A stretch of DNA of 36,109 nucleotides, taken from IMG/VR virus record IMGVR_UViG_3300031659_000001, one strand, 5' to 3'. Below, piece after piece: positions 461 to 35,804 of this stretch. Under the pieces are notes generated by a model that ran no database searches, had not been told where the DNA came from, and was given only the letters and a program-made list of their open reading frames with translations. Positions within the stretch are counted from its first letter, which is position 1. The number at the start of each line of letters is the position of its first letter. The translations under genes were made by a program, and so were the position numbers. The stretch comes from an uncultured virus (IMG/VR IMGVR_UViG_3300031659_000001) (Duplodnaviria; Heunggongvirae; Uroviricota; Caudoviricetes).

Positions 461-3082
461 ATGCCGATTAAGAAAATACATTCACAGGCGATCCGCTTGA
501 ACGGATTCACGGATGGAATGGTTGTTCCTACTGGCGCATTCCGTGAAAGTGGTGTGGATTTGTATGCCGCATCACATACGGAAAAAACCGGCTCAACGAA
601 CAAGGTTCCTTCTTACAATAGTGACGAACCAAAAATAGGTTTGCGTCATATCCCAAACGAAGGCAACGGTTTGAACAATATAATTGGCCCATTTACTATC
701 GAAGCCTTTGTCATACCGGACAAAGGGGGGGTAGTGGTGCATAAGGAGAATTGCTACACTCTTTCTATCGGAGAACCACATAAACAAGGCAAAGCGTCAT
801 TCGTAGTCCACACCCGTAGCATTTCGGGTGAAAATAACGGTGAACAGGTAGAAACCCCATACGACTTCCCATCAACCGAAAACATATCACTTTGGGGCGG
901 GCAAAGTGCTTATTTCGACTCATCATCCGACCTCTTGCCGCACGATTTGGATTTACCCAACCAACCACTCATCTATCTCAATGCTCAATTCACTGGTTCC
1001 GACATTCGTCTTTACATTAACGGGGATTTAGTAGCAAAACAAGACTTTGGTGGTGAAGAACGCATATTACAGTCCAGTTCATCCGATCTGTTCATTGGTG
1101 GGCGTGGTGGAGAGTTCCGTGGTGTCATAGAAAGTGTTCGCATTAGTCGAGGAACCATAGCCCCTAAATTACAACAATTCACCAAAACGCCGGTCACTAT
1201 GGGTCTTTGGGACTTTGAAGACGAAGACGATATTCCCGACATTTACTTCTTTAATAACAAATCACCTTCGCATTCATATGCTGGGGCTGATGGGGTTGGA
1301 CAAAATGACGATGAAATGCCTTATCCTATGGTATGTGTTGGTTATGATTTCAATAATGTGACTGTGAGTGGAACGATTACAACACCCATTACACTTGCGG
1401 CTGGCTACAATTACGGGCGTTTCAAAATACGAAACTTTCCGGGTAGTGCCCCAACAGCCTTGAAAATGATTGCTTCACACATGTTATCGGTTCCTATTGA
1501 TGAACTACCGCTTCAATCGTGGTGGAACAACGGTGCTGGTTATCTCGATGTGGGGGCAACAGTCACCAAAGCACGCTATCATGCTGATGGATTGCCTGTA
1601 AGCAATTTGAATGCGGTGATCAACGCCAGTGGAACCGACCCGATAACCGGCGGCTCATTCAGTTCTTTTGACTATAATTCGACTAATTTAGACCCAAGCG
1701 GTGGTATAAGCCTCAATCCGATGGCTAATCCCATTGAACGAATCCGCATCATAGCCCTCGATTTCACCACAGATGAGGTAATAGTTCAAAGTAGTTTCCT
1801 ACAAGGAACGACGGCTGACGCTAAAACGACCGGCTTTTTGTTTAGTCACCCCGACAATACACCCGTGTGGTTCACTCTCGGAAATGCTGATTTAATGATA
1901 GACCCCGGAAACGATGCCCGACCAAAAGGCCAAATGACACGGGCACGATTCACACAGGGACAGCGTTTTGAAGACAGATCTGGATTCGGGAATGAGGCAT
2001 ATTTTATCGGGACTCAATCAAGAAATGTCGAAGAAATGCTTACGCAAGCACAAAACACTGGCGGTTTAGTCGCTAACACCAATTACCCGCCGATAGAAAC
2101 AACATTGATGTTGTGGCTTGACGCCGATGACGGAAGCAGTATGATGAAAGGCACCATGGAACCAATTATGACCGAAGAAGGAAGCGGTGCTTACCCTGTT
2201 TGGTGGACAAGCAAAGCCCCTAAAGCCCCTAATTATCACTTTTATGGGGGAAACAGGGTAGGAACCGCATGGCGTTGGATAAAGAACTGTGCCAATGTCA
2301 ATAGTCGTGGAGGGCTTCAAGTTTCCTTTGGTGGTGAACAAGTCGATGCAAATGCCGAAGCGCAAGAACTACAAGACATGTTCCAACAAATGACACCACT
2401 ACAACCCGTAGTGCCGATAACAGGAATGTGGGCAAATGGGAAAGGTGCCTTCGGTGAGCCGGGAAGAATACCCGGTTTTGATGGAGAAACGGGAGGCCCG
2501 ATTGCCTTTGCTATTGAACACGCCTCAACCATTGATGGATCAACACCGACTAATAATGGGGATTTTACATTCTATTTCGTCTTAACACCAGCCTATGCAA
2601 CAGCAACGGCTACACTTGCGCTAATACAAAATGCCGGTTATGGAATAGATTTCCGTTTGGATAATGGCAGTGGTGTTCCTAAAGTGACCTATTCAAACCT
2701 AACCAATACTATGCTGGCGGCTGGGAAACCCGCCGCAGGTGTTCCTTGTTTAATCGCTATCACGGTGAATGGTAGCGAAAACGGTTCCTACAATTTATAC
2801 AACAAGGCAAACGGACACACTCCTGTTTATACAAAAACCTTCTCCGGCACCCCAAACGCCAACCTTACCTTTAGTGGCAACAATAATGTTTCTACGGCTG
2901 GTTTAGAATTGTTCGGTATTTTTAACCACAATGCTGGTGGCGGTGGGCCGGGTGACAATGCGACTGTTGCCGATGCCTACGAAGGACTTACAGTGCATGA
3001 AGTTATGATTTACGCCGGGGCGCACACCACTACCCAGCAAGCCGATGTCCGACAGTGGATTGAAGACAAGTGGGGGATTTAA
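461..3082 (+). CDS. Virion tail/adhesion protein with two LamG (concanavalin A-like) domains
   Basis: 873 aa. N-terminal LamG motifs FTIEAFV, RLYINGDLV, LFIGGRGGEFRGVIESVRISR, GLWDFE. C-terminal LamG-like motifs LMLWLDADD...HEVMIYAGAHTTTQQADVRQWIEDKWGI. Confidence 0.8.
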   Translation: MPIKKIHSQAIRLNGFTDGMVVPTGAFRESGVDLYAASHTEKTGSTNKVPSYNSDEPKIGLRHIPNEGNGLNNIIGPFTIEAFVIPDKGGVVVHKENCYTLSIGEPHKQGKASFVVHTRSISGENNGEQVETPYDFPSTENISLWGGQSAYFDSSSDLLPHDLDLPNQPLIYLNAQFTGSDIRLYINGDLVAKQDFGGEERILQSSSSDLFIGGRGGEFRGVIESVRISRGTIAPKLQQFTKTPVTMGLWDFEDEDDIPDIYFFNNKSPSHSYAGADGVGQNDDEMPYPMVCVGYDFNNVTVSGTITTPITLAAGYNYGRFKIRNFPGSAPTALKMIASHMLSVPIDELPLQSWWNNGAGYLDVGATVTKARYHADGLPVSNLNAVINASGTDPITGGSFSSFDYNSTNLDPSGGISLNPMANPIERIRIIALDFTTDEVIVQSSFLQGTTADAKTTGFLFSHPDNTPVWFTLGNADLMIDPGNDARPKGQMTRARFTQGQRFEDRSGFGNEAYFIGTQSRNVEEMLTQAQNTGGLVANTNYPPIETTLMLWLDADDGSSMMKGTMEPIMTEEGSGAYPVWWTSKAPKAPNYHFYGGNRVGTAWRWIKNCANVNSRGGLQVSFGGEQVDANAEAQELQDMFQQMTPLQPVVPITGMWANGKGAFGEPGRIPGFDGETGGPIAFAIEHASTIDGSTPTNNGDFTFYFVLTPAYATATATLALIQNAGYGIDFRLDNGSGVPKVTYSNLTNTMLAAGKPAAGVPCLIAITVNGSENGSYNLYNKANGHTPVYTKTFSGTPNANLTFSGNNNVSTAGLELFGIFNHNAGGGGPGDNATVADAYEGLTVHEVMIYAGAHTTTQQADVRQWIEDKWGI

Positions 3083-3083
3083 T

Positions 3084-6000
3084 ATGACTATATCATATCC
3101 AAATCCCGGCGTTGATTATGACGAAAACGAAGATGTTTCGGGTCTAAAGGCAGTAAATAGAGACTTTGCTGGTTGTAGTGGTGTTACATCATACAATCGA
3201 GTCAAAGGGCACTTTTTCCTTGCGAACCTACCGCAACCCCAAGACGAAGTAATTACAAGAACAGTGCAAGGATTGGCAGATCGGTTTGAAACCACATATG
3301 AAGACGCTTCGGTTGGTTCGCTGGTGTCGATGAATGACAATGTTCGCATTACCGAAACCGTGTATCAAGGAGAAGCCCTGTCGGTTATCACCAAAAGCAC
3401 CATCTCATCAATAGCCGAAACAGCAAGTCCTAATCACAAGCATTCATCGATCATCGTTCAAGGAGGCTATGGCTTTCACGACGGGACAACAAATCATAAA
3501 TCATCATCGGCTGACAGTATTGTAGCAATTGGTGTGGATGATGTGCGCCTATTTGCACTGAAAGGTCTTGACATCGACCACGATGCCCTGTTCGACACAA
3601 ACAACCCAACAAAGCCAACAGACCAAGAATATGTTCGCCACCTTACACCGGAACAGGAAACAAGAGTTGCTACAATTGATATTCCATCCTCATTAGCAAA
3701 CTTTGGATTACCACCAAAGGTATTGGTATATTATTCCGCCATTGACTTAAGTGGAGAAGTAGTAGCCGCATGGAAAGGAACTGCCGAGTATCGAACTGCG
3801 GTGGTGAACCTCGACAATACCCACAACGATCTAACATCCATCAATCAAATGGAAAAGAAGGGGTGGTTGGTGGTGGAACGCACAGTTCCCGACGCAAACA
3901 CCATTTTCGTTGATAGGAGTGTTCCAACAGCACCCGTCTATCGAACACTCGCCAATTGGTTGAAAAGACCCTTTACTGATGCTCAACGGGCATCGGGGGC
4001 GCAAACGGCGTGGAACGGATTGACGATTCATGCACCCGGAGGGCTTGTTTCTATCCCATCCACCGCACTAAACAAGCCACTACAAGACCATGTTATGCGT
4101 TCAAACCCGACTGGTGGCAAAACACATTCTCCATTTATTAACCTTGAAAATTGCGCCCATACTATCATTCAACGAGGTGGTTTAACCGTTCCCGGTGTCA
4201 CCAAGAGTATTGACAATGGCTACGGCATTCCTATTGGACAACATGGGACAAGAAGTCCAGTTACAAAGAGCGAGGGTGTTTATCATACATTTTCTTGCAG
4301 TGTGGAGAGCATGGTGGATAAGACAGCCGTGACTACACTCGCTGGTCTTGGCCCAACAACGAAAAACACTACATTTGAGCAATTTGACATCATCGACAAC
4401 AAAGTCGAAGGGGACAGGTATTTACTTCTCGTCCACCCTAAAAACCGCCAACGATCAGGCACTCTCGCCTCCTTACAGACCACCCAAAACAGTGCTGAAC
4501 CCCATTTATGTAAAGTAGAACTTGTTTCCATGCGTGGTCGAATTGAAGAGATTGCACCAAACAGCAACAGTGACGGTGGAGGCGGAGTTGTTGTCCGTGG
4601 TCGTTCTCAATTGATGGACATTTCAGATCGAATAGCAGAAAGGGATTTCAGCCTTGCCGAAGGTTTTGCTATCAAAGAGATTGGCGACCTCGGTTCCCCT
4701 ACTGTTAGCCTCACCATGGGCGGTTTGGGGCAAGGTGGTATTGATATTGCGCCTACACGGACAGAACACTCCTTCTTGCCAGTTTGGAAAGACAAGGTTA
4801 TTGGGTCAAATAACCCATCAGTTCGGAACGACCGTCAAACCTCCACTTACTATGCCTCCACCCGTGCTTTGGTGGAACTACCTCTATTCCCCTCGATGTT
4901 CTATGATGTTGAACAACGCTTGGCTGAAAGTGAAAACAAGCGTAGCCCTCTTCCTACTTCAAAAGCCACAGAACTGGTGATTGACGCTACAATGACAGCA
5001 GGTAATAGACCTCAAATGAAGGACTTTGAGAGTAGAAACGCCATTGATTGGGGCATGAAGAACATAGTGTCGTCACTGAAAGTGAATGACTACAACGCCA
5101 TTTCCGGTGGCAGGGTGTGGATCCGAGCCATGCGTGAGAGTTCAGCAACATTTACCCGTGTCAAAAACACAGGTGGCGACGGTGCGGTTATTTTGGGCGG
5201 TAGTTCAAACAACGGCACTTTCCACTATTCATCATCTTATATTGAAGTGGACAGTGTATTGCCGTTTATTCTCGATTATGAAGGAGGTTTTGAAGGTGGG
5301 GCTACGGAATATAATACCGCCACAGCAGGTGCCGCTTTCACCAATTTAGGCTATGTTGTCACCGTTGGCGAAGGTATCATCAGTGAGAGGGGTATTCGCT
5401 TCCACATTCACAGAACACGGGTGACGGGCACTTCCCAACGCCTGTATTTCGACGCATACCAGCACTGGGAGGATAATGACTTAACCTATGCTGAACTCAA
5501 GTTAATTGTCACCACTGGCCTACCTGTTGTTATGGGGTCTTGGCTTACTGATGCTGGTGCCTACACGGGTGTGGGAACTGCTGGGAATACAAACGCCACC
5601 TTTGCGGCTTTGAACGCCGCCGTCGGCACTACTGCGACTACTGTGGCACAGAACTTCATTGGGCCGTTGGAGAAGACCTTCGCCATGGGTAGAACAACAA
5701 CAAACGGTATTGATGACCGAAGTGGAATACAGATTGACCCAAGCGATCCCGACGGGACAACGATTCTCATTTACAATGGCCCTACAATGGAGGGCTTCAC
5801 CTTTGACCCCGGCCACTACCTTTACAGTGCTGACGATATGCCACTTCTTCCTCCTGTTGAATGCCGTTCGGGACACCTTTCTCTCAAGGGCAAGCGCAAC
5901 GACAACACGCTTGATTGGGTGCGTCCTATGAGCCTCAATTTGGGTTCTGTGGCAAGTGCAGGAACGGTGAGCAAGTTTGAAGAAGCGGTGGATGAGGTCA

Positions 6001-8111: not shown

Positions 8112-8112
8112 C

Positions 8113-14100: not shown

Positions 14101-17100
14101 GGCGAAACACCAGCCGGTATGGGTCGTGTGCTGGATTTGGAGGACATTGGACTCGTTAAAGCAAATGCTTTACCAGCAGGTATGGTTGATTCGCACCGAA
14201 CCGAGTTCGCCACTATAACAGGCACAGCCGCTAAGTTCCTAAAGTCTAAACCATTGAACAAAGGTTCAGATCCTATTATTGGTTTGAATCACCATTCCGG
14301 TGATGCTACTTTAGCCGCAGGTTCGGTTGAAGCAGTGACTCAATCCACCGCATTTGGTGGCGGAACTACATTCATACATCATAAAGGAAATAACCTTCAT
14401 CTCAACGCACACCCAGTCGATCACAAAGTGAGCAGTGGCGACCAAACCCATTTCCCAGCACACGGATGGGGACGCTCATTGGACATGAAGAACAAGAATA
14501 CAGCCGACCGAGGTGTCATGCCTATTCCTCTATCCGAAATAGCCGACCACCGACAGGTGCAATCCGACCTTTCACCTCGATTGGGTATGGTTATTGAAAC
14601 CGAAAGCGAGCGAACTACTGGAAAGAACGAAGACTATATCGTAACCAGCACCAAGGCAGTTTCACTACACAGCGATTTAGCCATTGGACAACAGTTCCCA
14701 TTGACCCCTTCTTGGGTATCGCAAACCAAGTGGACAAAGTTCGCCGGAGGCGCAACGACAGCCGCCACAGGGCCGGATGCTACTTACGGCGGCCCTCTCT
14801 CCCCTAACCAAAAATGGCAAATGCCTCAATGGTCTTTGGATAGAGAGACAAACCACGGTGCCCCTGCTAATTCCGATACCATCACTATGTTCGATGGTAA
14901 GGGTGTCTTAGACCACTGGGCTGTTCGTGGTTGCGGTGACTTACCGCCTTGGGGCGGAGTATATATTGTCCGTAAGACTTGGCTTGAGCGACCCGAAAAC
15001 AACAACAACAACCGGGCCATAATGCCATATGACGCCTCCGACTCTTTACACAGTCAAAGCCCAGTCCCAGTATCGGCAGTGGAACAACCCGTGCGTAAAA
15101 CAGCCGACTACATCATGCGTATGGTGCGACCTCTCAAGGCGTTTGGTTTCACTACCCGTAAAGACTGGGATGACACAGACCAATTCACACAGGATGGATG
15201 GTTGTTGGGTGCTTACTCAACGGTTACATCGTCGGGCCATGGGCACCAGCCTTTCACCCGTGACAAACGATACGGTATGTTTGAAATGAACCAATCTAAG
15301 ATGCCCGGAACGATTGAACCAATTGGTTCTCGAAGCGATACTGCGCCTACAATGGAATGGCCGGATGCCAACGAGCGTGATGTTACATGGCACTTGATAC
15401 CAAGCGCAAACATGCTTCAACACTTCAAGTCGGATGCTTCAAGACGAGATGGTGAGGGTAGATTGGTTCCATCTGTAGATCCACGCTATTCCCAAAGCAC
15501 CCATCCGGGTGGCAAAGGGGTTGTTTCGCAAACCCAAACAAGTTTCACCGCTACTACAACAGCGATATTAGACCCTTACAACAGGCGTGGTGCAGATCAA
15601 GATGTTGTCAAAGCACAGGCTGACTTGGCGATGACTACACTTGGGCCGAAGCAATTGATTTCTATTGATGGGGGAACATACATCACAGTGGCCGATGCAA
15701 CAGTATTCCCTGCAACGGGAACATTGGTGATTATTGGTTTGACAGGACAATTAACCTACAACGCAAGAACCGAAAGCAGACTTACTATTTCAGCCAGCAC
15801 AGGTGAGTGTTCGAGTATCGCTGACCTTGCAGGGAGAAACATTTACTTTGGTAAGAATGGTGCCACTGTCGCCGCTACGGTAGCGAACATCTACCCTTCT
15901 AAGCACTCTCTTGTTGTCTTGCCTTCATTGGTGGACAATGCTGTCTCCGTCGGCCTTTCATTATCCGATAAATGGGATGCTACGGACAGTGGTGATACCA
16001 AGACATTCTCCCCTAATATGGGCTATCGAGGCATTGGGCACTACGACCCATCGGATTTCCGAATGCTGACTCCCCAGCGTTTCGTGCTAAACGACGGAGC
16101 AAAGGAAGGTGTCATTTCATATGTCAAGAGGCCGGGAACAGGTGGGTTGAACAAAATATATGTCGATGGAAGGGAACTTTCTAAGGCAAACCACCCTCCT
16201 TATTTGCTCGATTCTATCAATAAGAAGTGGCGCATCGCTGGTGCTGATGTCATCTCCGGTGAAGGCAATTGGCAAGAGAACCTATTGAAGTTCCGAAACA
16301 TCAACGGCGAGTCCCTTAGTGGCGGCGGTATGTCTTTGGGTGGCACTGTTCGATTAGGGCACTACATGGCAGTTGGTGTGAGATCCACCGACGCCTCTTT
16401 GATGTTGCTTGACGACATCGGCCAGTCAATACCGGGTGCTGACCTCCTGCCGTATGAAACAGCAAATGAGCCGACAATGGTTGATGACGCAATCTACTCT
16501 TACCCATCAGCGTCAAACATAGGATATTACCTACAAGCCAATAACAAGGTTTCGCAATCCGCTATGGTTAATGCCCACCCCTCCCTTTCATCGACCATTG
16601 AACATAGTAGTGTTTTCGTGAGCAGGGACGCAAGAGGTATTGGAGTTCTCGATACAATGCGTGGGTTTTCGCAAATGGATGGACGACAAATGCTGATGGA
16701 TGATACAGGAAGAATCATCTATTCGGGTGAGGTCTTCCTTGGCCGAGAACAACGCATTGGTTCATCCAGTGGCCCTCAAATGGTAGAGGTTTCTTCTATG
16801 TTGGAGATGGCAAACCATGTAATTGTCGAAGGTGATAGGATAGCCGAAAACGAAACAATCCGAGCCGAGGTCAAAGACCTTGAAAAAGCCAAGTTAATGG
16901 GCGGAAAGGGCAACGAAGAGGGTGTCCTTCGCACTTTACTTCAACAGGTTCCGGGTGTGAAGGAAAGGGCACTGGCTTTGAAAATGGCGAAACAATTTAT
17001 GAATCGAACCGAGCAAGGTTCCGCTATGATTAGGGTTACTGGACTCGTTAAAGCAAGTCATTTACAACCGGGTGAAATCATCGGAGTGGACTTTGTTAAT

Positions 17101-21012: not shown

Positions 21013-21224
21013 TCGTGATTCCAACATGTGTCCTTGCCAAACATACGGATCTGGCGACAACGGTTTCCTTGAGCATTGGTGCCTATACACATGTATTGGG
21101 TATCGTTTGTTGCGGCTATGTCCCTTCTACACTTGGCGCATAGAGGGCGATAGCCTTTCTTTCCCATACTGGTTGGGTTGCTCGAAAACCGGCCATCGCA
21201 CCTCCCACAAACAATGCGTGCCAT
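21009..21224 (-). CDS. Small double Zn-finger protein
   Basis: Start moved to the ATG at 21224 (GAGGA upstream). CGRC...CAKC plus CIGTNAQGNRC...CWNH. Stop overlaps the methyltransferase stop tail-to-tail. Confidence 0.65.
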   Translation of the reverse strand: MARIVCGRCDGRFSSNPTSMGKKGYRPLCAKCRRDIAATNDTQYMCIGTNAQGNRCRQIRMFGKDTCWNHD

Positions 21225-21226
21225 AC

Positions 21227-21775: not shown

Positions 21776-21776
21776 A

Positions 21777-23365: not shown

Positions 23366-24073
23366 TTAGGCATTGGTGATTTTAATTCTCTCTTTCACCA
23401 CAGGGGACTCACTATTTAATGCCTCTACGATGCCCTTAGCACGCACTTTTCCGATCCCTTCAAGTTTCATAAGTTCGTTTGCACTTGCGCCAGCAATTTC
23501 AGTAATAGAGCCGAATGACTTTAGCAAACGCTTGGCGATTGCCTCACTACATCCTAAACCCCTAAGAGCATCAATACGCATGTCTTCGCTCGATGTGCGG
23601 CGCAGTGTGCGATATGTGCTGATACTACCCAGCGTGCCATCCTTCTCACATCTCTTCACGATCCAGTAGGCGGCGGCGGAGGGTGTAGGGAATTGCATAA
23701 CTGTCAAATCAAAATCCACATCAAGGCGAGCCAAGGAACCTAAGAATTGGGCCTGTATGCGAGCGAAGGGGGTTCTGTTGCCTCTTCGCTTCAAACGAGC
23801 CACATAGGCGTCCAGTTTGCCATGAATGACGAGGATGTTACGGTTGTAGTTCTCGTCCATGTTTTCCAATTGGTGGGCAAGGTGCCCGCTTTGGAGGGAT
23901 TGCATGTAGTCATCAATGGTCTTGGCTTCTATGCCCAATTGACCGTAGCAGTAGTCTGTGATGAGATTTTGGTTCACTTCCCACTTGATACCGGCCTTAT
24001 CAGCCTTCTCTTTAACAGCCGCTTCAAGACCAGATCGTTCCCGATTGTCGATATAGAGGATTTTTTCAACCAT
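23366..24073 (-). CDS. ERCC4/XPF (Hef-like) structure-specific nuclease with a tandem HhH domain
   Basis: IDNRE, DY...GIEAKTIDDYMQS...GHL..QL. C-terminal LRGLGCSEAIAKRLL and LEGIGKVRA HhH motifs. Confidence 0.85.
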   Translation of the reverse strand: MVEKILYIDNRERSGLEAAVKEKADKAGIKWEVNQNLITDYCYGQLGIEAKTIDDYMQSLQSGHLAHQLENMDENYNRNILVIHGKLDAYVARLKRRGNRTPFARIQAQFLGSLARLDVDFDLTVMQFPTPSAAAYWIVKRCEKDGTLGSISTYRTLRRTSSEDMRIDALRGLGCSEAIAKRLLKSFGSITEIAGASANELMKLEGIGKVRAKGIVEALNSESPVVKERIKITNA

Positions 24074-24859: not shown

Positions 24860-24883
24860 TGTTTTTCATCTCCGGTTTTCATT

Positions 24884-24943: not shown

Positions 24944-24944
24944 A

Positions 24945-26009: not shown

Positions 26010-26014
26010 AATAG

Positions 26015-26956
26015 TCACTCCAAATGTGTTTGATAGCGTGGACAGAACTCTTTGACAGCGCACCACGGGTCGCATATCGAGTATTGGCGGAAGGGAGGGA
26101 TAAGAGGAAACATACTGATTTCCCCATCACCCTTGTATTTCTTGTGCATACGGACGAGGTTTTGCATATCAACCATCATCAAGCCCAGTTCTTTGACACG
26201 AACTGCCTCCACTAAGCGGAACATTTCAGCGTTTTCTGTGTCGGTGTCCTTCACCCCTTTCGTGTGATCCCAACCCCAGTGGGTAATTGGTGTCAAAGGC
26301 TCGGCCTTTCGCAACAACCACACATAGAATGCCATTTCCTTACGCATAGCCTCGTATTTGTATGGGGACTCTTTCCAAGCCCCTGTCTTGAGTTCGTGTA
26401 TGTGAAGAGAGCCGTCGGGGTTGCTATATATTCGGTCAATGAACCCAACAAAGTGGATGCGCTGTGCCACACCATCAACGGTTATTTCGACAACAGTGTC
26501 CACCTCCTTTTCATTACCAGTCGGCAAGAAATTGTCGGGTTGGCTGTTGTTGAATCGCTCTACCTCCTTCACACGGTAGCGGTCAATATGCAAGTCTTCA
26601 TCCAAATAGAAAGAATCCTGCCCCGAACGGATTTCCGATGAAGAAGGGAAACATTCACGGAAATAGCCATCTAGATCCTCCGATTCAGTAGCCTTCTCGA
26701 TGTCCACCCTTTGATAGAAGCCTTCAACGGCGTCGTGGACATTGGTTCCTCGTAGCATGTTGTCGTTCTGTGGCTCCTTCATGCCTATAATCCGCTTGAT
26801 TGCGTATTGTTGAGAGCAAAAGGTAGATTCTCCCAGTGACGATTTAGTCATACGGAGAATGATATTGTCGGGCATACCGGGGTGCCAATCGTAGCAAGAG
26901 AACAAATCCTCATGGTTTGCCACAGGGTATGGGCGAGGTGCTTTATGGGTTATCAT
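26015..26956 (-). CDS. Cas4/AddB-like PD-(D/E)XK nuclease with Fe-S cysteines (stand-alone)
   Basis: KSSL...FC, RGTNVH, GFIDRI, IHELKTG, EMAFY, CDPWC...FCP. Start moved to 26956 (TAATG coupling, AAGGAG RBS). Confidence 0.85.
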   Translation of the reverse strand: MITHKAPRPYPVANHEDLFSCYDWHPGMPDNIILRMTKSSLGESTFCSQQYAIKRIIGMKEPQNDNMLRGTNVHDAVEGFYQRVDIEKATESEDLDGYFRECFPSSSEIRSGQDSFYLDEDLHIDRYRVKEVERFNNSQPDNFLPTGNEKEVDTVVEITVDGVAQRIHFVGFIDRIYSNPDGSLHIHELKTGAWKESPYKYEAMRKEMAFYVWLLRKAEPLTPITHWGWDHTKGVKDTDTENAEMFRLVEAVRVKELGLMMVDMQNLVRMHKKYKGDGEISMFPLIPPFRQYSICDPWCAVKEFCPRYQTHLE

Positions 26957-27915: not shown

Positions 27916-27918
27916 ATT

Positions 27919-30213
27919 TTACCACCACTCTTGGGGGGTTGCCCCGTCGGCTGTCAGTTCTCGCCAGCCCATAGCCTCGAAAATGAGACTGACCGGAGCG
28001 ATTATCTGTTTCTGTATAACCGTTGTGTAATCAATGTCAAGGGCTTCGAGTTCTTCATCTGTTCGGAACGCCTCGATCCCTCTTGTAGTATAGACATGGG
28101 GGACACCATCACCCTTCTCAAAGCGGTTGTCGGGGTTGCGGCGGTTGTAGTCTTTAGCGGCTCCTTGAAACCCACCTTGTTGTCCATATGATTCGGCCTT
28201 CTTACCGAGCCTAGATCTCATAACAAGAGACTCTCGCTTCACTAAAGTTCGCACAGCCCTTATCCAATTATTCATCATGTCCCTTATGTCTTCCTCCGTG
28301 GCATTTTCACGACATAGTGATTCAAAGGCTGTTTCTTGAATGTGTTTAGTGAGCCATGCGGCATTTGACTTCTTCATCTCAAAGCCAGTGCAGTGGAGTG
28401 CTTCTCTCGGCCAAGTGACCCAGCCAAAGTTTCTGTTCTTTTTGGCGGCAACCCATGACGACATCAGTTTCTCATATTCAACGACGAAACGCTCGGAGTC
28501 GAACTCCTTCTGTATCTTTCGTGTCAAAGCGTCGGCAATCTCTTCACCGTCGTCATCGCCAATTCCTATGTATGCACTGTCGGTGTGTCCTGCGAGTGGC
28601 TCGTAGCCCATCTCTTCGCACACATCCATGAGTCGTGAAACCAATGAACGCCCGACATAGGTGATAGTGGCGGCAACGGTTCTGTGTGCTTCACCATGAC
28701 CTGTGTGTCCCATGAGGCCATAGACCGATGCGGCGGCTCTCTTGAATGCTAATTGTAGTGTGTTGAAGCCAGCATGTTCCGAAGTTCCTGCTTCGTGCTT
28801 CTTCATCTCGGCCTTAGCGGCGTTGCGAGCATCAGCAAGATCCATCTGCAATTGTGGCAATACCCCTATGCTCTCTTGACTCCAAAATGTCCCGTTGCCA
28901 ACAGCACGGATATTCTCTCCCGCTTCGTGACGAAGCATTTCGGGACTGATATTGTCAGCACGCTGGATTTCAGCATACATGGCACGGTAATCGAAGACGG
29001 CTACATTGTTATGGCGGCCAGTCTTTGGCTCGGCCACGAAACCACCACCGTATGAATCTCCTTTTCCTTTGTTGTATAATCCTGTTGGCGAAGCCCACGA
29101 AGCCCTACGGCGTAGTAAGCCCCTTGCGAACCGACTTACGGTGAACACGGAACCAAATGAAACCCCACACACACGCTGTAAAGCCATGAAGAATCGGGTG
29201 ACATGGTATTCCCTGTCGAGTCGATCAGTGAGTATAACATCGGCTCTATGGTATTTCAAGAAGTCATCGAAGTGATTCAACCATAGATCGTGGTGAGTAA
29301 TCCCATTAGTGTCTATTTTCCACAGTTCGGGACTATCGGGGAATGCTACCTTTCCAACAGCACCAAGTCGGCGGTCGGACAATTGGCCGTTGCCACTGTC
29401 TCTCCACACACGCTCAAAGCCGTGGTTCCTGTCTGCCAAATCAACAGTCATTCGACCCGGTATTACTTGAGAACCATCCTCATAAACCCCACTTCGTGGG
29501 AGGTGGGTCATTGGCGGCGAACTGCTGACATCACTAAGAGGCGACATCCAATCGAAGCCAATGTAGTGGTGCTTGTAGCGTTCATACATTTTCGGCCAGT
29601 CGGCACGGTTGCCCGACCATGTAGTAATGAGGTCGGGATCCAGCGTTTTGAACGCATCGGCAAATGACAATAGCATCTCCCTCTCGGAACGAAATGCACC
29701 TAATCCTTCATGTGTCGGGTGCCAAGACCACTGTCGAACTACCTCACCGTCTGTGGTGAAGCCCATAGCGGTGAGTTCACCCTCTTCATTCCATTCAAGG
29801 TCAAAGCCACCAGCCCGAACCATGTTCGGAAACCAGTCGGGCATGTCCTTTGGATTGATATTGTCAATAGCAAAGCGGTCGGGAAAGTGAATGTCAGCCT
29901 CCCATGTTTCGTCGCAAAGGTCACGCATACCTTTCACAGAACTGGGTGATGGAGCAACAATAGAAAGTAGTTCACGGCCTTCGGGTAATTCCTCGGTCGG
30001 GAGAGATATACTGGTCTTCTCACCAGCATACCATCCACGGAAGCGTTCATCGAACATTTCCGTAATTCGTGACATGTCACTGTCGGCGGCGACATAGAAG
30101 TAAGGTCGGTAATCCGACACATAGTTCTCCATCACATTCCCGTCTTCATCACGGTAGCGAAGGTAGATCGATGGACATTCCTGTTCGTCTGTTTCGTAAG
30201 TGGCAATAATCAT
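27919..30213 (-). CDS. polB: Family B DNA polymerase with a proofreading domain
   Basis: ExoI FDLE, ExoII WSGNRADW, ExoIII YHRAD, YGGG. Polymerase motifs A FDYRAMY, B KRAAASVYG, C AGHTDS, then KKNR and GFEMKK. Confidence 0.92.
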   Translation of the reverse strand: MIIATYETDEQECPSIYLRYRDEDGNVMENYVSDYRPYFYVAADSDMSRITEMFDERFRGWYAGEKTSISLPTEELPEGRELLSIVAPSPSSVKGMRDLCDETWEADIHFPDRFAIDNINPKDMPDWFPNMVRAGGFDLEWNEEGELTAMGFTTDGEVVRQWSWHPTHEGLGAFRSEREMLLSFADAFKTLDPDLITTWSGNRADWPKMYERYKHHYIGFDWMSPLSDVSSSPPMTHLPRSGVYEDGSQVIPGRMTVDLADRNHGFERVWRDSGNGQLSDRRLGAVGKVAFPDSPELWKIDTNGITHHDLWLNHFDDFLKYHRADVILTDRLDREYHVTRFFMALQRVCGVSFGSVFTVSRFARGLLRRRASWASPTGLYNKGKGDSYGGGFVAEPKTGRHNNVAVFDYRAMYAEIQRADNISPEMLRHEAGENIRAVGNGTFWSQESIGVLPQLQMDLADARNAAKAEMKKHEAGTSEHAGFNTLQLAFKRAAASVYGLMGHTGHGEAHRTVAATITYVGRSLVSRLMDVCEEMGYEPLAGHTDSAYIGIGDDDGEEIADALTRKIQKEFDSERFVVEYEKLMSSWVAAKKNRNFGWVTWPREALHCTGFEMKKSNAAWLTKHIQETAFESLCRENATEEDIRDMMNNWIRAVRTLVKRESLVMRSRLGKKAESYGQQGGFQGAAKDYNRRNPDNRFEKGDGVPHVYTTRGIEAFRTDEELEALDIDYTTVIQKQIIAPVSLIFEAMGWRELTADGATPQEWW

Positions 30214-31007: not shown

Positions 31008-31306
31008 GAGTAATCCCTCCTTGAAGGGTTTAGTTCACTTGAATACTGTTGGGTCAATTGGTTCACCATCATTTCCTTTTGCATAGTAATATGATTCAAT
31101 GCGTCTTCAACAGGGATCATGATAGCGTCGGGTAATTCGTCGCAAAGGATAGTAATAACCGTGTGTTCGCTCACGGAGAAAATACCTTCGTCGTTCTTGA
31201 CTACCCAAAAGGATGAGAACGGGCCAGTGGCAATAACCCACTCGCCTGTCACCGTCTTGGTTTCCTTACCACCTATGGTATAGTTAATCGTCATTTGCAC
31301 CATCAT
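31004..31306 (-). CDS. Hypothetical protein
   Basis: 100 aa, coupled at both ends, GGAGG RBS. Confidence 0.65.
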   Translation of the reverse strand: MMVQMTINYTIGGKETKTVTGEWVIATGPFSSFWVVKNDEGIFSVSEHTVITILCDELPDAIMIPVEDALNHITMQKEMMVNQLTQQYSSELNPSRRDYS

Positions 31307-32514
31307 TCATCGCCTCCTGTCACTGTGAAGTCGCCTTCTTTAATACCCGGCCATCCGTGCCAAACGCCACCGTCGTCGTTTCGCTCAAAGAGCATAACAC
31401 GACCCGACGATTGGAGAGAAGTTCGATCTGCAACGATGACAGCGTAGCCACGGACAACGCCCGTCATTTCGCCACTCTCGTTGCGTTCCTCTTCGAGTTC
31501 AGTATAGATAACTTGTTGAAGGTGTCCTTCGGTGTCCTTAAGCCACTTCGGTGTGTCCTGTCCTGCAAGTTCGTTTCCGTTCTTGTCATAACCCGGTTTC
31601 ATGTGAGTAATGATGTAGCAGTGGACTCCACCACGACATAGTTCACGCATGGCAACCATAGCAGTTTGATAGCGAGTAGCACGGATGTTCCAATTGAAGC
31701 GACCAATTTGCGTGGTTGTCTTCTTACCGGAAACAGCGATACCATCGACACCCAGATCCAAGTCATCTACCTTCATACAGGTTTCAGTGATATGTAGCCA
31801 ATGGTCTGCTCCATCGAACACCACAGTCTTTAGGTATGGTTTAGGCATTTTGCCATGTTCAGCGAAGTATTCAGCCTGTGCTTCCATTTGGGATTTAGCA
31901 GTTTTGAGAATATCAATGGTCTGTTGGAATGTAGCAGGGAAGTCATAAGGAACACGACTCTCACCGTAATTGAAGACCCAAGGGTTGAGGATAACCATGT
32001 TTTCGGCCTTATCCGAATGGTGAGCCGCCTTTGTTGTCTCTCCACCAAGATCGAAATCAATGTGCCAAATCTCGGCACCGGCTTTCACTTCTTGTGGGGT
32101 GAGGCTGTCAAGCACCATACCAGTCTTTCCTGTCTTTGGATGTCCAGCGATTCCGCACATGACGAATGCCTGTGGGGTATTCATCGGTTGGCGAGCATTA
32201 GCAATCATGGTAGCGATTGTTGGATTGACCCGTGATAGGTGACTCTCCGTATGGGCACGATTCACCTTGTTGTTGTTTGGCTTACTCTTCACCTTTGGTG
32301 GTGAAGGAGAAGGCTCATCGACAGGTGGTTCCTCGTCGAGCGATTGTTCGTGTTCAACGGAGGGGGTGTCGGGAGGAATGAATTGTTCTCTTTCCTCTTT
32401 CGTGGCAGGGCGTGGTGCCGCCGCCGCCTTCTTCGATCCAGCCGTCTTGGTTGGTGGTTCGTAGTTTCCTTTCTTTTCCTTAAAGCCGTCCAAAAATCCT
32501 GTTCCTGCCATCAT
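31303..32514 (-). CDS. RecA-superfamily ATPase (Sak4/RadA-like recombinase) with a disordered Pro-rich N-terminus
   Basis: Walker A GHPKTGKT, HIDFD, Walker B VVFDG, IITH. GGAGGTGA RBS. Confidence 0.75.
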   Translation of the reverse strand: MMAGTGFLDGFKEKKGNYEPPTKTAGSKKAAAAPRPATKEEREQFIPPDTPSVEHEQSLDEEPPVDEPSPSPPKVKSKPNNNKVNRAHTESHLSRVNPTIATMIANARQPMNTPQAFVMCGIAGHPKTGKTGMVLDSLTPQEVKAGAEIWHIDFDLGGETTKAAHHSDKAENMVILNPWVFNYGESRVPYDFPATFQQTIDILKTAKSQMEAQAEYFAEHGKMPKPYLKTVVFDGADHWLHITETCMKVDDLDLGVDGIAVSGKKTTTQIGRFNWNIRATRYQTAMVAMRELCRGGVHCYIITHMKPGYDKNGNELAGQDTPKWLKDTEGHLQQVIYTELEEERNESGEMTGVVRGYAVIVADRTSLQSSGRVMLFERNDDGGVWHGWPGIKEGDFTVTGGDE

Positions 32515-33851
32515 TCATCACCTCCGACACCGAAGCCATTGAGGTTGCCAAGATCGTTACTTGACTCGCTCGGCTTGCGTGCTGGAATAGACTTGTGTGG
32601 AACTGCATAGATACCGTGTGCTTGAACCTTGACGACTTCATCGCCGTCTTGGTTGGTATAGGACTCGGTTCGACCGACGACCCAAACACGGGAACCCTTT
32701 GCGTATGGTAGCCATTCGCCGCCCTTGAGAACGGAGAGAGCATTATGAGCCTCCTTCACTTGTCCGGCAACGCCAATACCAATGCGAGCATTTGGATCTT
32801 CACGGCGAAGAACCTGTGTGCTGATGGATAGCCAGTAGTCACGGCCTGTGGTGTCCCACTGGGACTCACGGCCTTCATGGTTAATGTCCATGACACCACC
32901 AACAATACAGACCATAGGGCCATCATAGCGTTGAATACCGTTGCGGTCAGTGTATGACTCACGGCGGTTGTCGAGATGGTGAGAGAGCAAATCCTTCAAA
33001 TTAACAGCACAGTCACCAGTAGTAGTGAGGTATTGTTCGGGATTGAACAGGCCAACACATGTGTCTCGCTTCTTACCTTCGGGAACCCAGTCAAGACCAT
33101 AGGTGGACTTTGTGTTGCTCACCGATAGAGTAGGGCCAGCACCGTTGTAGCCTTCTGCATCGAACTTTCCTTTGATGGAAATTGGTTGCCAAAGGTTCCA
33201 GTCGTGTGTAGCACCTTCAAAAGCACCTTCAACAGTAATCATAATCGGGCCTTCGTCAAGGAACTTGTCCTTGGCGTTGCCGTGGAAAGCCCAAAGAGAC
33301 TTCATAGCGGTAGCACGCTGTGGAGTGTTGTCACCCTTGAGCATACAGATCGATAGTTTCTCGTTGAGAGGAATAACCCAGTCGGGTGATGAGTCGGATG
33401 TGTCCTTTGACACAAATGTCCCACTACCGTGTTCGGCTCGCCATACGCCTTCGGAGGTGTAAGCACGGCCAATACCGACTTTGTTACCGTTGTAATTGAA
33501 TCCGTTTTTGATAGCACCTGTAAGGTCGGAAGTAGCGAAGTCGATAGCCGACTCACGCTTGCGCTTCATCAAGTCAAAGCGTCGGTCGAAGCCGATGAAC
33601 ATACCAACCCACTCTTCGCCAGATCCGCCGCCGCCACCGCCACTTGGGCGATTAGCACATACATACATGTCAGCAAAGTCGTTAAAATCATCAGCATCCA
33701 AGCCCTGTGCTGAATTACCAGCCAGTTCCCACATGTCGGTGAAGGTTTCGTTCATCCACGCACCAAAAGAGGCTAATGCCTCTTCTACCCCTATTCCAAG
33801 TATTTTAGCCGCTTCGCTTATGCAATCATTTCCAATTTGTCTTTCGCTCAT
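32511..33851 (-). CDS. Putative RPA/SSB-like OB-fold single-stranded DNA-binding protein
   Basis: OB-like C-terminus YAKGSRVWVVGRT...VKVQAHGIYA with an acidic tail. Lies between the clamp loader and the recombinase. Start moved to the ATG at 33851 after GAGGGTGA. Confidence 0.55.
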   Translation of the reverse strand: MSERQIGNDCISEAAKILGIGVEEALASFGAWMNETFTDMWELAGNSAQGLDADDFNDFADMYVCANRPSGGGGGGSGEEWVGMFIGFDRRFDLMKRKRESAIDFATSDLTGAIKNGFNYNGNKVGIGRAYTSEGVWRAEHGSGTFVSKDTSDSSPDWVIPLNEKLSICMLKGDNTPQRATAMKSLWAFHGNAKDKFLDEGPIMITVEGAFEGATHDWNLWQPISIKGKFDAEGYNGAGPTLSVSNTKSTYGLDWVPEGKKRDTCVGLFNPEQYLTTTGDCAVNLKDLLSHHLDNRRESYTDRNGIQRYDGPMVCIVGGVMDINHEGRESQWDTTGRDYWLSISTQVLRREDPNARIGIGVAGQVKEAHNALSVLKGGEWLPYAKGSRVWVVGRTESYTNQDGDEVVKVQAHGIYAVPHKSIPARKPSESSNDLGNLNGFGVGGDE

Positions 33852-33856
33852 ATATT

Positions 33857-34873
33857 TCACCCTCTTTGTTCATAATCCCCAATCATAGCATGGAGGAATA
33901 GGAGATCGCTCGCTGTCCAGTCGGGGCTTCTTGCCGCCCACTGTCCGAGGATCATGAGATGCTTACATGCAACCAAGTAAGTTATCTCATTGTCTTTGTA
34001 ATTTTGAAGGATGGCTTCATGCAATCCTTCTATGCACTCGTCACGGTTTATGCCGAGAGTATTGATGAGTTCGGAGGCAACGGTAATTGTCGCCTCGGTA
34101 GTAAGCATATCCGTATAAAGTGCGAAAATAGGCGACATATCAACGGCTATGAGACGAAGTAGTGCGTCGGGGTCTTCGGGATTGCATGTTTGCATAGCCT
34201 TCAAACAAGCACGCATATCGCCTTTGTATTTTGCGACGAACTGCTGGACATTCTCACTCCACTGTGTAGGAAATCCTTCTTCCTCTATTATACGGACAAT
34301 GAAACCAACGGCGTCATCATCCCCAAGAGGGCTGAATGAGTATGCTGGTAGTCTTGAACGGAGAGCAGGTATAATGCGACCAATACGGTTGCATGTGAGA
34401 ATCCAAAGGACATGTGAACCAGTCTGTTCGATCAATTGGCGCATGGCGTCTTGAGCGTCCTTGGTGAGTCCGTCGGCTTCATCCAGCACTATCACTTTGA
34501 AATCGTGGCCTACTGCCTTCTGTTCAGCCAAAGGCTTGAGGCGGGTTCTTACGAACTGTATGCCTCTCTCGTCGGAGGCGTTGAACTCATGGAAATTGTT
34601 ATCGAAACCAGATCCGAGCATATCCTTAGCAATAGCCCTTGCTCCACTGGTCTTACCAGTGCCCGGTTTCCCATAGAATATGACTCCCCCACACCTTAAT
34701 TGATGCTTGTTCTGTGAATGGACTACCCATGAAGGCACATCGTCCTTCAATTGCTCAAGCCCAACCATTCCTTGTAGGGTGTCGGGGCGGTGGGTCATCC
34801 ATAATTGAGTCATCATTACACTTCCGTGGGATTCATGCCAATAGGGGGTTGGGTATATAGGTTGGGGTGTCAT
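33857..34873 (-). CDS. rfcS: Replication factor C small subunit (clamp loader ATPase)
   Basis: W..HRP, YGKPGTGKTS, EFNASDERGI, IVLDEAD, LRSR, GDMR. Start moved to 34873 (ATGA coupling). Confidence 0.92.
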   Translation of the reverse strand: MTPQPIYPTPYWHESHGSVMMTQLWMTHRPDTLQGMVGLEQLKDDVPSWVVHSQNKHQLRCGGVIFYGKPGTGKTSGARAIAKDMLGSGFDNNFHEFNASDERGIQFVRTRLKPLAEQKAVGHDFKVIVLDEADGLTKDAQDAMRQLIEQTGSHVLWILTCNRIGRIIPALRSRLPAYSFSPLGDDDAVGFIVRIIEEEGFPTQWSENVQQFVAKYKGDMRACLKAMQTCNPEDPDALLRLIAVDMSPIFALYTDMLTTEATITVASELINTLGINRDECIEGLHEAILQNYKDNEITYLVACKHLMILGQWAARSPDWTASDLLFLHAMIGDYEQRG

Positions 34874-35442
34874 CGACTCGACCCCCAATCTTCAATGGAC
34901 AGGCTCTTAGTAGCCTGTTTAGGGGTCGGTTTTAGTAGCGTTGCTTTATCATGGATGATGAAATCCCAATCGCTGTCTAAAAGGTGTGGTAAGACCGCCC
35001 GAACATTCTCTTCACGGGCTACAATTCTCTCAAACCAATTCTGTTCACTTGGTCGCAATCCGAACACAGCAAGTAGGCGGTTCGGCACAGGCTTTGGGGC
35101 TTTGTTTGGAAAGGTAATGCGACGGCGACCGGAACCATCCTTTGAAAGTGCCAGCAGGGAATACATAATACCAAAACTCTCCTTCTGTAATAGTTCACGG
35201 GCGGCAAACATCACGGTTGGATCGTTGGGGCATGTGGCATTCATAACATCAAGCATGAATGCGTGGTGTGTGGAGGCGGTTTCCAAAGCATCTCTTACAT
35301 GGAGGCGGTCGTAGTCGTTCAACCACTTTCGCATGGCATCAAACAGTGATACCTTCTTCTCATCGAAAATAATATCCTCGGCGTTTGGGCATACATCGAA
35401 CCAGTCGTTCGTGTCAAGTGCCTCGTCTTCAAACAGATTCAT
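34870..35442 (-). CDS. Hypothetical helical protein, candidate non-ATPase second clamp-loader subunit
   Basis: 190 aa, coupled to rfcS, no Walker motifs. C-terminal QATKSLSIEDW is PIP-like. Confidence 0.5.
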   Translation of the reverse strand: MNLFEDEALDTNDWFDVCPNAEDIIFDEKKVSLFDAMRKWLNDYDRLHVRDALETASTHHAFMLDVMNATCPNDPTVMFAARELLQKESFGIMYSLLALSKDGSGRRRITFPNKAPKPVPNRLLAVFGLRPSEQNWFERIVAREENVRAVLPHLLDSDWDFIIHDKATLLKPTPKQATKSLSIEDWGSSR

Positions 35443-35804
35443 TCAATCACCTCTAATTTATCTAATATCTCCAACACGCCAGCATGTGTAGTCGCTTCGG
35501 GAAGACTACCGACATGAGCCGAGACGGCTAAAAAACCTTCCGGATCCTTAGTGAAATGGATGAACGGCTTCATCAGCCTCAAAAGCCGTGTCAAATGATG
35601 GGCTTTAGTGTATCGCTGTTGAACGGGCAACCCGTTCTCGATCAGGAATGCGCTCACTTGCGCTGGAATAGTTCTACGGCCAAAGAGGTCGCATTCGGGT
35701 CTTATGTCATACCCAGTTTGGTTCTTCGTGGTGAGGCGTGAAGCAATACGGAACCTAATGTTGTGTGCTACCAGTAGTATAGTGATGTCCTCTTCTTCAA
35801 GCAT
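35439..35804 (-). CDS. Hypothetical protein, possibly a degenerate LAGLIDADG fold
   Basis: Start moved to 35804 (AGGTGA RBS). RFRIASRLTTKNQTGYDIRPECDLF resembles the LAGLIDADG beta-hairpin, but there is no catalytic motif. Confidence 0.5.
   Translation of the reverse strand: MLEEEDITILLVAHNIRFRIASRLTTKNQTGYDIRPECDLFGRRTIPAQVSAFLIENGLPVQQRYTKAHHLTRLLRLMKPFIHFTKDPEGFLAVSAHVGSLPEATTHAGVLEILDKLEVIE

Follow-up and report, generated by a model that had tools for sequence, protein, structure and literature searches.

Why should a short word be erased from a viral genome everywhere except where it overlaps GATC? The question is raised by a 36,109-nucleotide stretch of DNA from an uncultured virus (IMG/VR record IMGVR_UViG_3300031659_000001; Caudoviricetes), analysed here over its whole length and hereafter called the window. 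In it, the degenerate pentamer YCWGR (Y, C or T; W, A or T; R, A or G) survives only on GATC, and a gene at 19672..21012 on the plus strand encodes a 446-residue protein of the Dam family (D12 class) of N6-adenine DNA methyltransferases (PF02086, phrog_56), a candidate writer of a GATC mark. A first-pass annotation of the window had proposed that methylation of GATC, plausibly by this enzyme, shields YCWGR and CTAG sites from a host defence. On the evidence set out below, we consider it probable that host Type II restriction has purged short words from this genome and that N6-methyladenine (m6A) placed at GATC by the viral Dam-like enzyme shields the sites that overlap it, YCWGR being one such word.

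An exact count across the window returns 12 YCWGR sites, at precisely the coordinates first listed and with GATC overlapped in every case: each site reads GATCWGR or its reverse complement (12 of 12). The pentamers start at 1979, 4455, 4623, 14266, 20263, 21050, 21616, 24030, 31752, 33619, 34608 and 35642. Where the site shares TC with GATC, the combined word is GATCTGG (1977..1983 and 21048..21054) or GATCAGG (4453..4459 and 35640..35646). Where it shares GA, the word is TCAGATC (4623..4629, 14266..14272 and, within the methyltransferase gene itself, 20263..20269) or CCAGATC (21616..21622, 24030..24036, 31752..31758, 33619..33625 and 34608..34614). Both CTAG sites, at 26671 and 28211, read CTAGATC as originally noted; the first (26671..26677, context TCTAGATC) shares only its G with GATC, and the second occupies 28211..28217 (context CCTAGATC). 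Arranged as a 4 × 4 table of xCWGy pentamers, the four purged classes number CCWGA 5, CCWGG 0, TCWGA 3 and TCWGG 4, every copy lying on GATC. GCWGC, a separate purged word, is also at zero, and the remaining 11 cells hold between 47 and 109 copies. The other flank classes are as common as the first-pass annotation had stated, with 299 RCWGR, 271 YCWGY and 203 RCWGY.

As a null model we used 200 synonymous-codon shuffles that keep every protein and the codon usage of each gene. YCWGR is expected 208.5 ± 11.2 times in these shuffles (minimum 178), compared to the 12 copies observed, and CTAG 54.9 ± 6.6 times, compared to two. For the class that overlaps GATC (GATCWGR and the reverse complement), the shuffles give 11.2 ± 3.2 copies, so that the 12 observed stand at the neutral number. 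Only about 5% of the YCWGR sites in shuffled sequences overlap GATC in this way; overlap at 12 of 12 sites is therefore far beyond chance, and the enrichment that the first-pass annotation had expected from such a comparison is borne out. The same result is obtained from the GATC side: among the 182 three-base tails that flank the 91 GATC sites, 12 are WGR, where 11.4 are expected at 4/64. Depletion of YCWGR in the window is thus total outside GATC and absent inside it. No YCWGR site preceded by an AATC-, CATC- or TATC-type context survives in the window, and the exemption requires all four bases of GATC.

These counts bear directly on the idea that what preserved the surviving sites was positive selection acting on functional words with GATC in them, or else the demands of the encoded proteins. 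GATC itself is rarer in the window than in the shuffles (91 versus 125.3 ± 8.9), and positive selection for GATC, a possibility raised in the first-pass annotation itself, therefore cannot explain the survivors. The idea draws on nothing beyond the co-occurrence; GATCWGR is neutral in number, the 12 sites are spread over 11 different open reading frames (ORFs) with no further sequence common to their flanks, and the same exemption applies to unrelated words and in other lineages. Contradicted by counts, shuffles and relatives alike, it is hardly credible.

The exemption extends beyond the two words to which it was first tied. Seven of the 16 palindromic hexamers that remain in the window occur only where they overlap GATC (26 of 26 sites): AGATCT (2), GGATCC (5), TGATCA (7), ATCGAT (5), TCATGA (3), TCCGGA (3) and TCTAGA (1). 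TCATGA occurs three times versus 12.2 in the shuffles, all three on GATC, where 1.4 are expected (GATCATGA at 19704..19711, 31115..31122 and 33950..33957). The three TCCGGA sites, versus 8.1 in the shuffles, are likewise all on GATC, where 1.1 are expected (GATCCGGA at 18458..18465 and 19936..19943; TCCGGATC at 35539..35546). ATCGAT falls from 11.3 to five, every copy on GATC, where 5.5 are expected; these read ATCGATC at 3446..3452 and 19894..19900, and GATCGAT at 19577..19583, 30166..30172 and 33348..33354. For GCAGAT the effect is partial: six of nine copies are GCAGATC (3.1 expected), and GCAGATD (D, any base except C) occurs three times versus 11.7. The first-pass annotation was thus right to exempt YCWGR and CTAG on GATC, and overlooked TCATGA, TCCGGA, ATCGAT and, in part, GCAGAT. 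Its list of YCWGR and CTAG sites was complete, and covered only two of about fifty purged words.

An unbiased scan of every 4- to 6-mer starting with TC, scored by how often GA precedes it, ranks TCTGG, TCTGA, TCAGG, TCTGC, TCTAG and TCATGA at the top in the window virus, and words containing TCGA first in the two related genomes G003 and G004 (introduced below). No other word casts a shadow of comparable strength in these scans. A second shielding word was also considered and rejected: purged hexamers and degenerate blocks suffice to account for the flank tables of GCGC, TTAA, GGCC, CCGG, TGCA, AATT, CATG and TCGA.

Some asymmetric words also show a bias towards GATC. In G003, a G stands before ATCTT/AAGAT in 31 of 42 cases; for ATCTGC/GCAGAT this holds in 17 of 21 cases in the joined genome described below, 17 of 25 in G004 and 8 of 16 in G005. 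Given their asymmetry, these words are probably targets of Type IIS-, IIG- or III-like enzymes, with the target adenine coinciding with the Dam adenine.

Related genomes allow the pattern to be followed beyond the window. Searches of IMG/VR with the family B DNA polymerase (PolB) and the methyltransferase gave 25 loci, from which five whole records (G001–G005) were taken. G001, a 64-kb record, is identical to window positions 21675–36109 over 14,435 bp, and joining the two yields a genome of 86,016 bp. All 36 YCWGR sites of the joined genome overlap GATC; neither it nor the window holds any of the unshielded sites that the first-pass annotation had thought would speak against its proposal. In G005, whose methyltransferase is 67% identical, the figure is 14 of 14. 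Across loci with a PolB 82–100% identical or a methyltransferase 66–100% identical, all YCWGR sites lie on GATC with the exception of one contig, L011, where four of seven do. The three unshielded sites of L011 fall at 7318–7476 of a 7525-bp contig in which two ACGT and one GGWCC are also found; the stretch with these sites, within the last 210 bases, may be a chimeric end of the contig or have been acquired recently. In approximately 267 kb of non-redundant clade sequence, we count 95 distinct YCWGR contexts, of which 90 overlap GATC by two bases, two by one base, and three, all in L011, not at all. The comparison with methyltransferase-bearing relatives suggested in the first-pass annotation reproduces the pattern in this clade.

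More distant relatives show the same exemption on other words. TCGA lies on GATC in 18 of 18 cases in G004, 41 of 41 in G003 and one of one in G002, and CGCG in five of five in G003 and one of one in G004. CTAG survivors in every genome read GATCTAG on one strand, in nine distinct contexts, some of them orthologous. All nine are YCTAGATC (from the window, G001, G005, G004, L003 and L025), and RCTAGATC is found 0 times versus approximately 13 expected over the five genomes. This bias suggests that more than one CTAG-related enzyme is involved, for example of RCTAG and YCTAGR types. GATC is under-represented in all genomes, at 0.34–0.67 of the composition expectation, and is lowest in G002 (59,975 bp; 80 versus 234 expected).

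The same relatives raise the question of whether YCWGR is one specificity or several. CCWGG is at zero in all five genomes, including G004 (PolB 58% identical), in which YCWGR is otherwise not purged (572 versus 661 expected). G002 and G003 (PolB approximately 64% identical) purge the true palindromes only: they have no CCWGG and just 13 and 7 TCWGA, respectively, yet retain 133 and 214 copies of TCWGG plus CCWGA. The YCWGR purge is specific to the window clade and G005. YCWGR could thus be the sum of separate enzymes cutting CCWGG, TCWGA and CCWGA/TCWGG, or the product of a CCWGG enzyme that reads the outer bases loosely together with a TCWGA enzyme, with the shielding by GATC equally real. 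Relaxation of this kind has a parallel in a CCWGG methyltransferase of N. meningitidis, which is described, in the passages that deal with it, as modifying CCWGA/TCWGG off target at 12% and so producing an apparent YCWGR motif (10.1101/2021.02.10.430591). Against a composite, an enzyme for a non-palindromic pentamer with a central W would have an unusual specificity. In the window clade and G005, all four classes are at zero together outside GATC and are shielded alike, the hybrid word is unpurged in G002 and G003, where both palindrome-cutting enzymes evidently act, so that relaxed cutting is not automatic, and the same genome has lost other degenerate palindromes, RAATTY and RGCGCY, as whole blocks. 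We therefore regard YCWGR as probably a single specificity and hold the composite to be the less likely account, although a serious one. YCWGR fits the Type IIP pattern, in that its four outer-pair expansions are avoided together and other flanks are spared. To our knowledge, it is not a recognised restriction specificity.

YCWGR is only one part of a far broader purge. The window holds zero copies of ACGT, AGCT, CGCG, GTAC, CCWGG, GCWGC, GGWCC and CTSAG (S, C or G), for which, CCWGG apart, the shuffles predict 41.6 to 107.3 copies. Forty-eight of the 64 palindromic hexamers are missing, compared to a mean of 0.5 per shuffle in 60 shuffles. When words containing an absent tetramer are set aside, 28 of 43 palindromic hexamers are still absent, versus 68 of 1909 non-palindromic hexamer pairs. 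In flank tables of the 86-kb genome, the palindromic flank pairs of GGCC, CCGG, TGCA, TCGA, TTAA, TATA and ATAT are absent or strongly depleted, all four being at zero for GGCC, TGCA and TCGA. The flanks of AATT and GCGC form zero blocks corresponding to RAATTY and RGCGCY, plus TGCGCA; we take the first two to be specificities of the ApoI and HaeII types. Asymmetric words are missing or low as well (CAGAG/CTCTG, at zero, and GCAATG), and purged blocks include the non-palindromic members CCWGA, AAATTC and AGCGCC. The purged sets vary by lineage: G005 retains ACCGGT and TCCGGA, which the window virus lacks or has only in shielded form, and has no CATATG or CCATGG, both of which occur in the window virus. 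With palindromes and degenerate palindromes depleted against a codon-preserving null, the purge has the character of restriction–modification systems.

Two other kinds of defence might leave a similar trace, namely a modification-dependent enzyme of the MspJI type, for which the CWG dyad in YCWGR would present mCNNR on both strands, and a general palindrome-sensing system. The former has a precedent in the use of YCWGR as an MspJI double half-site, as described in passages of one report (PMC10954476), and the latter would accommodate the loss of 48 of 64 hexamer palindromes. MspJI-type cutting is nevertheless hard to reconcile with the abundance of RCWGR (299 copies), which offers one mCNNR half-site, and no cytosine methyltransferase was found in the virus. 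A palindrome sensor would not account for non-palindromic words inside the purged blocks, and the lineage-specific choice of spared palindromes (ACCGGT, TCCGGA, CATATG and CCATGG) argues for many specific enzymes instead. We rejected both; taken together, they are very improbable.

One palindrome departs in the opposite direction. CAATTG is over-represented in the window (30 versus 17.4 in the shuffles; for example at 24887, 24913 and 24933), and all five related genomes contain 63–73 copies versus 16–23 expected. The excess stands out where nearly all other palindromic hexamers are absent. It may in part be a funnel effect of the RAATTY purge, and CAATTG could also be a functional or protected word.

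If a modification of GATC shields overlapping sites, its writer should be sought first among the viral genes. The product of the gene at 19672..21012 belongs to the Dam family by Pfam, motifs, profile alignment and fold, as the first-pass annotation had recognised. It matches PF02086 with 44.6 bits (cut-off 22), in two stretches, and carries its motifs in alpha-class order: FMNWEGGK at residues 98–105, EPMTGSGS at 127–134 and LDPPY at 340–344, together with NDMNPD. The DPPY motif indicates adenine-N6 chemistry. Trp101, Gly103, Gly104, Lys105, Asp341, Pro342 and Tyr344 are invariant in 17 sequences. Compared to solved Dam enzymes, to which it is 15–18% identical (the best sequence matches among solved structures being DpnM and E. 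coli Dam), the protein has an N-terminal extension of approximately 95 residues and an insert in the target-recognition region. An hhalign comparison of the 17-sequence profile with E. coli Dam gives a probability of 96.9%, pairing (V)PYTEGRY with VPF--GRY of the DNA-reading hairpin and Asn213 with Asn115. The AlphaFold (AF2) model has a mean confidence (pLDDT) of 83.3. Foldseek places E. coli Dam first (E = 4.2e-9; target TM score 0.63), followed by DpnM (8e-9) and T4 Dam (2.4e-6; TM 0.70); Dam-class matches have E-values between 4e-9 and 6e-5, with the next class of fold beginning at 3.8e-3. At E-values up to 1e-5 the family comprises 21 clusters, all of metagenomic origin, marine or otherwise.

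No second candidate for the mark is apparent in the window virus. A Pfam search of 26 window and 76 G001 ORFs found no DNA methyltransferase besides the D12 enzyme and no recognisable restriction endonuclease. C5 methyltransferases (PF00145) are found in none of the five records, and the N6_N4 family (PF01555) is absent from the G001 and window ORFs. A tblastn search of the joined 86 kb likewise detected no N6_N4 homologue except one 50-residue match (window 26019-26168). Since the only detectable methyltransferase is Dam-like and the GATC shadow is complete, we infer that this gene is the probable writer of the mark.

Alternatively, a host Dam might methylate GATC and the viral enzyme act on another target. 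Sequence does not settle which word the viral protein recognises, and G002 has a homologue with no shadow. However, a D12 homologue matching PF02086 is present in the window virus and in each of G002–G005, no other word shows a comparable shadow in the scans, and the D12 protein is the sole methyltransferase of the window virus. A mark supplied by the host would also be lost whenever the virus grew in a host without Dam. We regard a host writer as unlikely.

A few further observations concern the methyltransferase genes. One or two N6_N4-family (PF01555) methyltransferases occur in each of G002–G005 (for example at 25398-26621 in G005), and the 50-residue match in the window adjoins a 376-residue ORF of no assigned function (24945-26075, phrog_9660). 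The N-terminal leader of the Dam-like protein (AF..AW..[ILMV]K[GSA]; window 19672-19770) recurs in five other reading frames of this virus, all of them outside the window (in the joined genome near 11056, 23474, 23872, 26746 and 32132), in some directly after a possible start codon.

Which base of GATC carries the mark can be addressed by the extent of overlap. As GATC is symmetric, most overlaps include both A:T pairs and a G:C pair, and only one-base overlaps discriminate between them. We compared the observed counts with the number expected under full protection by GATC context. Two- and three-base overlaps are shielded wherever the word is purged, G002 excepted: YCWGR is found 35 times versus 27.5 expected and 13 versus 15.9, TCGA 18 versus 27.7 and 41 versus 17.2, and ATCGAT 11 versus 7.1. 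One-base overlaps are mostly unshielded, with GATCCWGG at 0 versus 10.7 (five genomes), GATCTSAG at 0 versus 8.8 (three genomes) and GATCGCG at 0 versus 9.1 (joined genome plus G005). The exceptions are CTAG (7 versus 26.3 over five genomes), CGCG in G003 (5 versus 4.4) and possibly TCWGG in TCWGGATC (2 versus 5.4). Shielding by inner overlaps but not by most one-base overlaps favours a mark on the inner A:T pairs, that is, m6A. If the mark is m6A, a few enzymes would in addition have to respond to methylation of the base pair beside their site.

The exceptions are also the best argument for a mark on the cytosine of GATC, such as N4-methylcytosine or 5-methylcytosine, or for some other GATC-specific modification. 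The C of GATC is the first base of the shielded one-base overlaps CTAG and CGCG, and in GATCWGR it is the invariant C2 of YCWGR; Dcm-type enzymes methylate CCWGG at this same position. Such a mark should have protected CCWGG, CTSAG and CGCG next to GATC, where they are at zero (CGCG in the joined genome plus G005). It would also lack a candidate writer, with no C5 methyltransferase in the five records, no N6_N4 enzyme in the window virus, and a DPPY rather than an SPPY-type motif in its sole methyltransferase. A cytosine mark is accordingly quite improbable.

Taken together, these results are consistent with the following mechanism. A diverse pool of host Type II-like enzymes would select away about fifty short words. 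The product of 19672-21012 would methylate progeny DNA at GATC on both strands before packaging, such that it would enter the next host already marked, a strategy known from orphan methyltransferases of phages. With a methylated A:T pair inside or directly against an overlapping word, the enzyme would be unable to make a double-strand cut. For YCWGR, which would behave as a degenerate palindromic specificity like the block-purged RAATTY and RGCGCY, the enzyme would have to contact the outer Y:R pair. In GATCWGR this pair would be T:m6A, whose N6-methyl group, lying in the major groove, would prevent recognition. One modified half-site would be enough, because TCWGA with GATC on one side only survives. 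Shadowed copies would then be neutral and stand at their expected number, and the others would be removed by synonymous choices where the protein allows.

Several observations weigh against this explanation. On the enzyme, the residues with which E. coli Dam reads GATC are Lys9, Arg124 and Pro134; the residue aligned to Lys9 is Asn100, and the loop arginine has no fixed column in the family. The fold match does not discriminate, since the matched D12-type structures (E. coli Dam, DpnM and T4 Dam) are all GATC enzymes. On the mark, CTAG in all lineages and CGCG in G003 are shielded by one-base overlaps in which m6A lies outside the 4-bp word and the C of GATC inside it, and an analogy between CTAG and XbaI is valid only if the enzyme reads the flank. 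Protection is also incomplete. The window lacks CGATCG, of which the joined genome has a single copy, and some relatives are without other NGATCN hexamers, so the mark would not protect against everything; GATC itself is under-represented. G002 has a methyltransferase homologue and no scan word of significance, and its TCGA is purged even on GATC (1 versus approximately 10 expected there). GATCWGR is low in G003 (3 versus 17.2), for no evident reason. Finally, the methyltransferase profile found no relative among species-representative genomes, and the search for a host yielded no host Dam and no host restriction enzyme. The window virus and G002–G005 also include no relative lacking the methyltransferase that could serve as a natural control. 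The original reading of the pattern as a footprint of GATC methylation nonetheless emerges as the best explanation: it is supported rather than demonstrated, and no computational test refuted it. That GATC is methylated, that the viral enzyme does this, that the modified base is m6A and that a host enzyme cuts YCWGR are, in our reading, inferred parts of it.

The remaining gene content places the virus among known groups. The minus strand of the window codes for a DNA polymerase of family B (27919-30213), a clamp loader of the RFC type (33857-34888), an ERCC4/XPF nuclease that bears helix-hairpin-helix motifs (23366-24073) and a PD-(D/E)XK exonuclease (26015-27001). Phage genes of the PAPS-reductase-like type are sometimes linked to DNA modification, and one such gene (26956-27915, minus; PF01507, phrog_424) overlaps that of the exonuclease. 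Three giant ORFs (873, 1688 and 3221 residues) follow one another on the plus strand over 461-17697; two match Laminin_G_3, with no other family match, and they are probably tail fibre or adhesin proteins. A megablast of the 9.7-kb ORF against a phage collection returned no match. G001 contributes a large terminase, a TFIIB-type zinc ribbon, a Cpn60 chaperonin, an HMG-CoA-lyase-like protein, a UvrD-type helicase and a ParB_N protein. The Aoguangviridae/Magrovirales are described as encoding PolB, RFC, an SF1 helicase, TFB, endo- and exonucleases, a chaperonin, HMG-CoA lyase and terminase, with replication and morphogenesis blocks on opposite strands, genomes of about 90–100 kb and an association with marine Poseidoniales (PMC10768690). 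The window and G001 together match this gene set (PMC10768690), and on gene content alone the virus appears to be a magrovirus-like tailed virus of marine archaea. Among the cultured viruses of the phage collection, those closest to it are tailed viruses of haloarchaea, with a PolB at most 24% identical and a clamp loader 35% identical to that of HCTV-5 and 36.5% to that of HVTV-1. A search for the host with the viral chaperonin gave a single match, at 51% identity, in a Woesearchaeota metagenome-assembled genome.

As both hosts and viruses are uncultured, their defence systems and DNA modifications are not yet directly measurable. The sequence nevertheless gives a list of about fifty words that would be cut by the enzymes of the host population, strong indirect evidence of GATC-modified viral DNA and, for each purged word, an indication of whether its enzyme is blocked by that modification. 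Our explanation predicts a divergent GATC-specific Dam-type enzyme and a YCWGR-cutting host enzyme blocked by m6A. The method, which compares how purged words survive where they do and do not overlap a candidate methylation word, is general and could be applied to any strongly site-avoiding virus. More speculatively, and with our confidence falling a little short of even, magrovirus genomes might be read as a negative imprint of the pan-restriction repertoire of uncultured marine Poseidoniales, in which each virus lineage would face Type II specificities by the dozen, among them YCWGR as a degenerate palindrome not described before. Their GATC shadow would then be a readout of the viral methylome, revealing from sequence alone which host enzymes are m6A-sensitive, and the methyltransferase, whose N-terminal leader is shared with other proteins of the virus, might even be packaged in the virion.

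Site avoidance and Dam-overlap blocking are each known; the two together as an imprint on a genome, a purge of this extent in magroviruses and a YCWGR restriction specificity were not found in print. Our literature search returned no report of a GATC-overlap exemption, or of such a purge in magroviruses. The main texts of two magrovirus papers (PMC5434244, PMC10160649) are silent on methyltransferases, restriction, GATC, palindromes and avoidance, and the literature passages that use the term YCWGR (PMC10954476, 10.1101/2021.02.10.430591) describe no enzyme that cuts it.

The closest biochemical parallel is the blocking of restriction enzymes by overlapping Dam methylation. This affects XbaI (TCTAGA), ClaI (ATCGAT), TaqI (TCGA), BspHI (TCATGA) and BspEI (TCCGGA), and further NruI (TCGCGA), Hpy188I (TCNGA) and MboII. 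The survivors TCGA, ATCGAT, TCATGA, TCCGGA and TCTAGA are textbook site types of this effect. The same words lie on GATC here (TCTAGA, ATCGAT, TCATGA and TCCGGA in the window, TCGA in relatives), and in both cases the methylated A:T pair is the outer pair of the site. The overlap of Hpy188I with Dam, GATCNGA, includes the GATCWGA of the window virus as a subset, but TCSGA is not purged (167 copies in the joined genome), and the YCWGR enzyme is therefore not Hpy188I-like. What differs is that the effect appears as an evolutionary imprint in the genome of a wild virus rather than as a nuisance at the bench, and that CTAG and CGCG are shielded with m6A outside the 4-bp word.

Avoidance of restriction sites, as short palindromes, in phage and archaeal virus genomes was reportedly described by Sharp in 1986 and by Rocha et al. 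in 2001, and is the subject of a later survey (Rusinov et al. 2018, PMC6286503). The window virus resembles such cases in its 4- to 6-mer palindromes, under-represented against a composition-preserving null, and in its lineage-specific sets. It departs from them in extent, with five tetramers, at least six pentamer classes and 48 of 64 hexamer palindromes wholly absent from 36 kb, and in the GATC-overlap exemption; neither "overlap" nor "Dam" occurs in the main text of that survey (PMC6286503). CCWGG systems (EcoRII/PspGI type; Dcm) are related in that CCWGG is contained in YCWGR and, in the passages cited above, in the apparent YCWGR motif created by an off-target CCWGG methyltransferase (10.1101/2021.02.10.430591). 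Here, by contrast, TCWGA, in which both outer pairs differ, is purged as fully as CCWGG, and the signal is one of cutting, not of methylation.

Orphan Dam-type methyltransferases that counter restriction are carried by several viruses, among them T4 Dam, P1 Dam and M.phiCh1-I of a haloarchaeal virus. Like them, the window gene belongs to a tailed virus and encodes a stand-alone N6-adenine methyltransferase with the Dam fold and motifs, for which a partner endonuclease was not found; it differs in its 446-residue length, extension, insert and 15–18% identity, and its activity and specificity are predictions. Archaeal tailed viruses are described, in passages of one study, as escaping restriction–modification through self-methylation or motif purging (Liu et al. 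2021, PMC8651126). In the window virus the two appear to be combined, and their interaction is visible in the genome.

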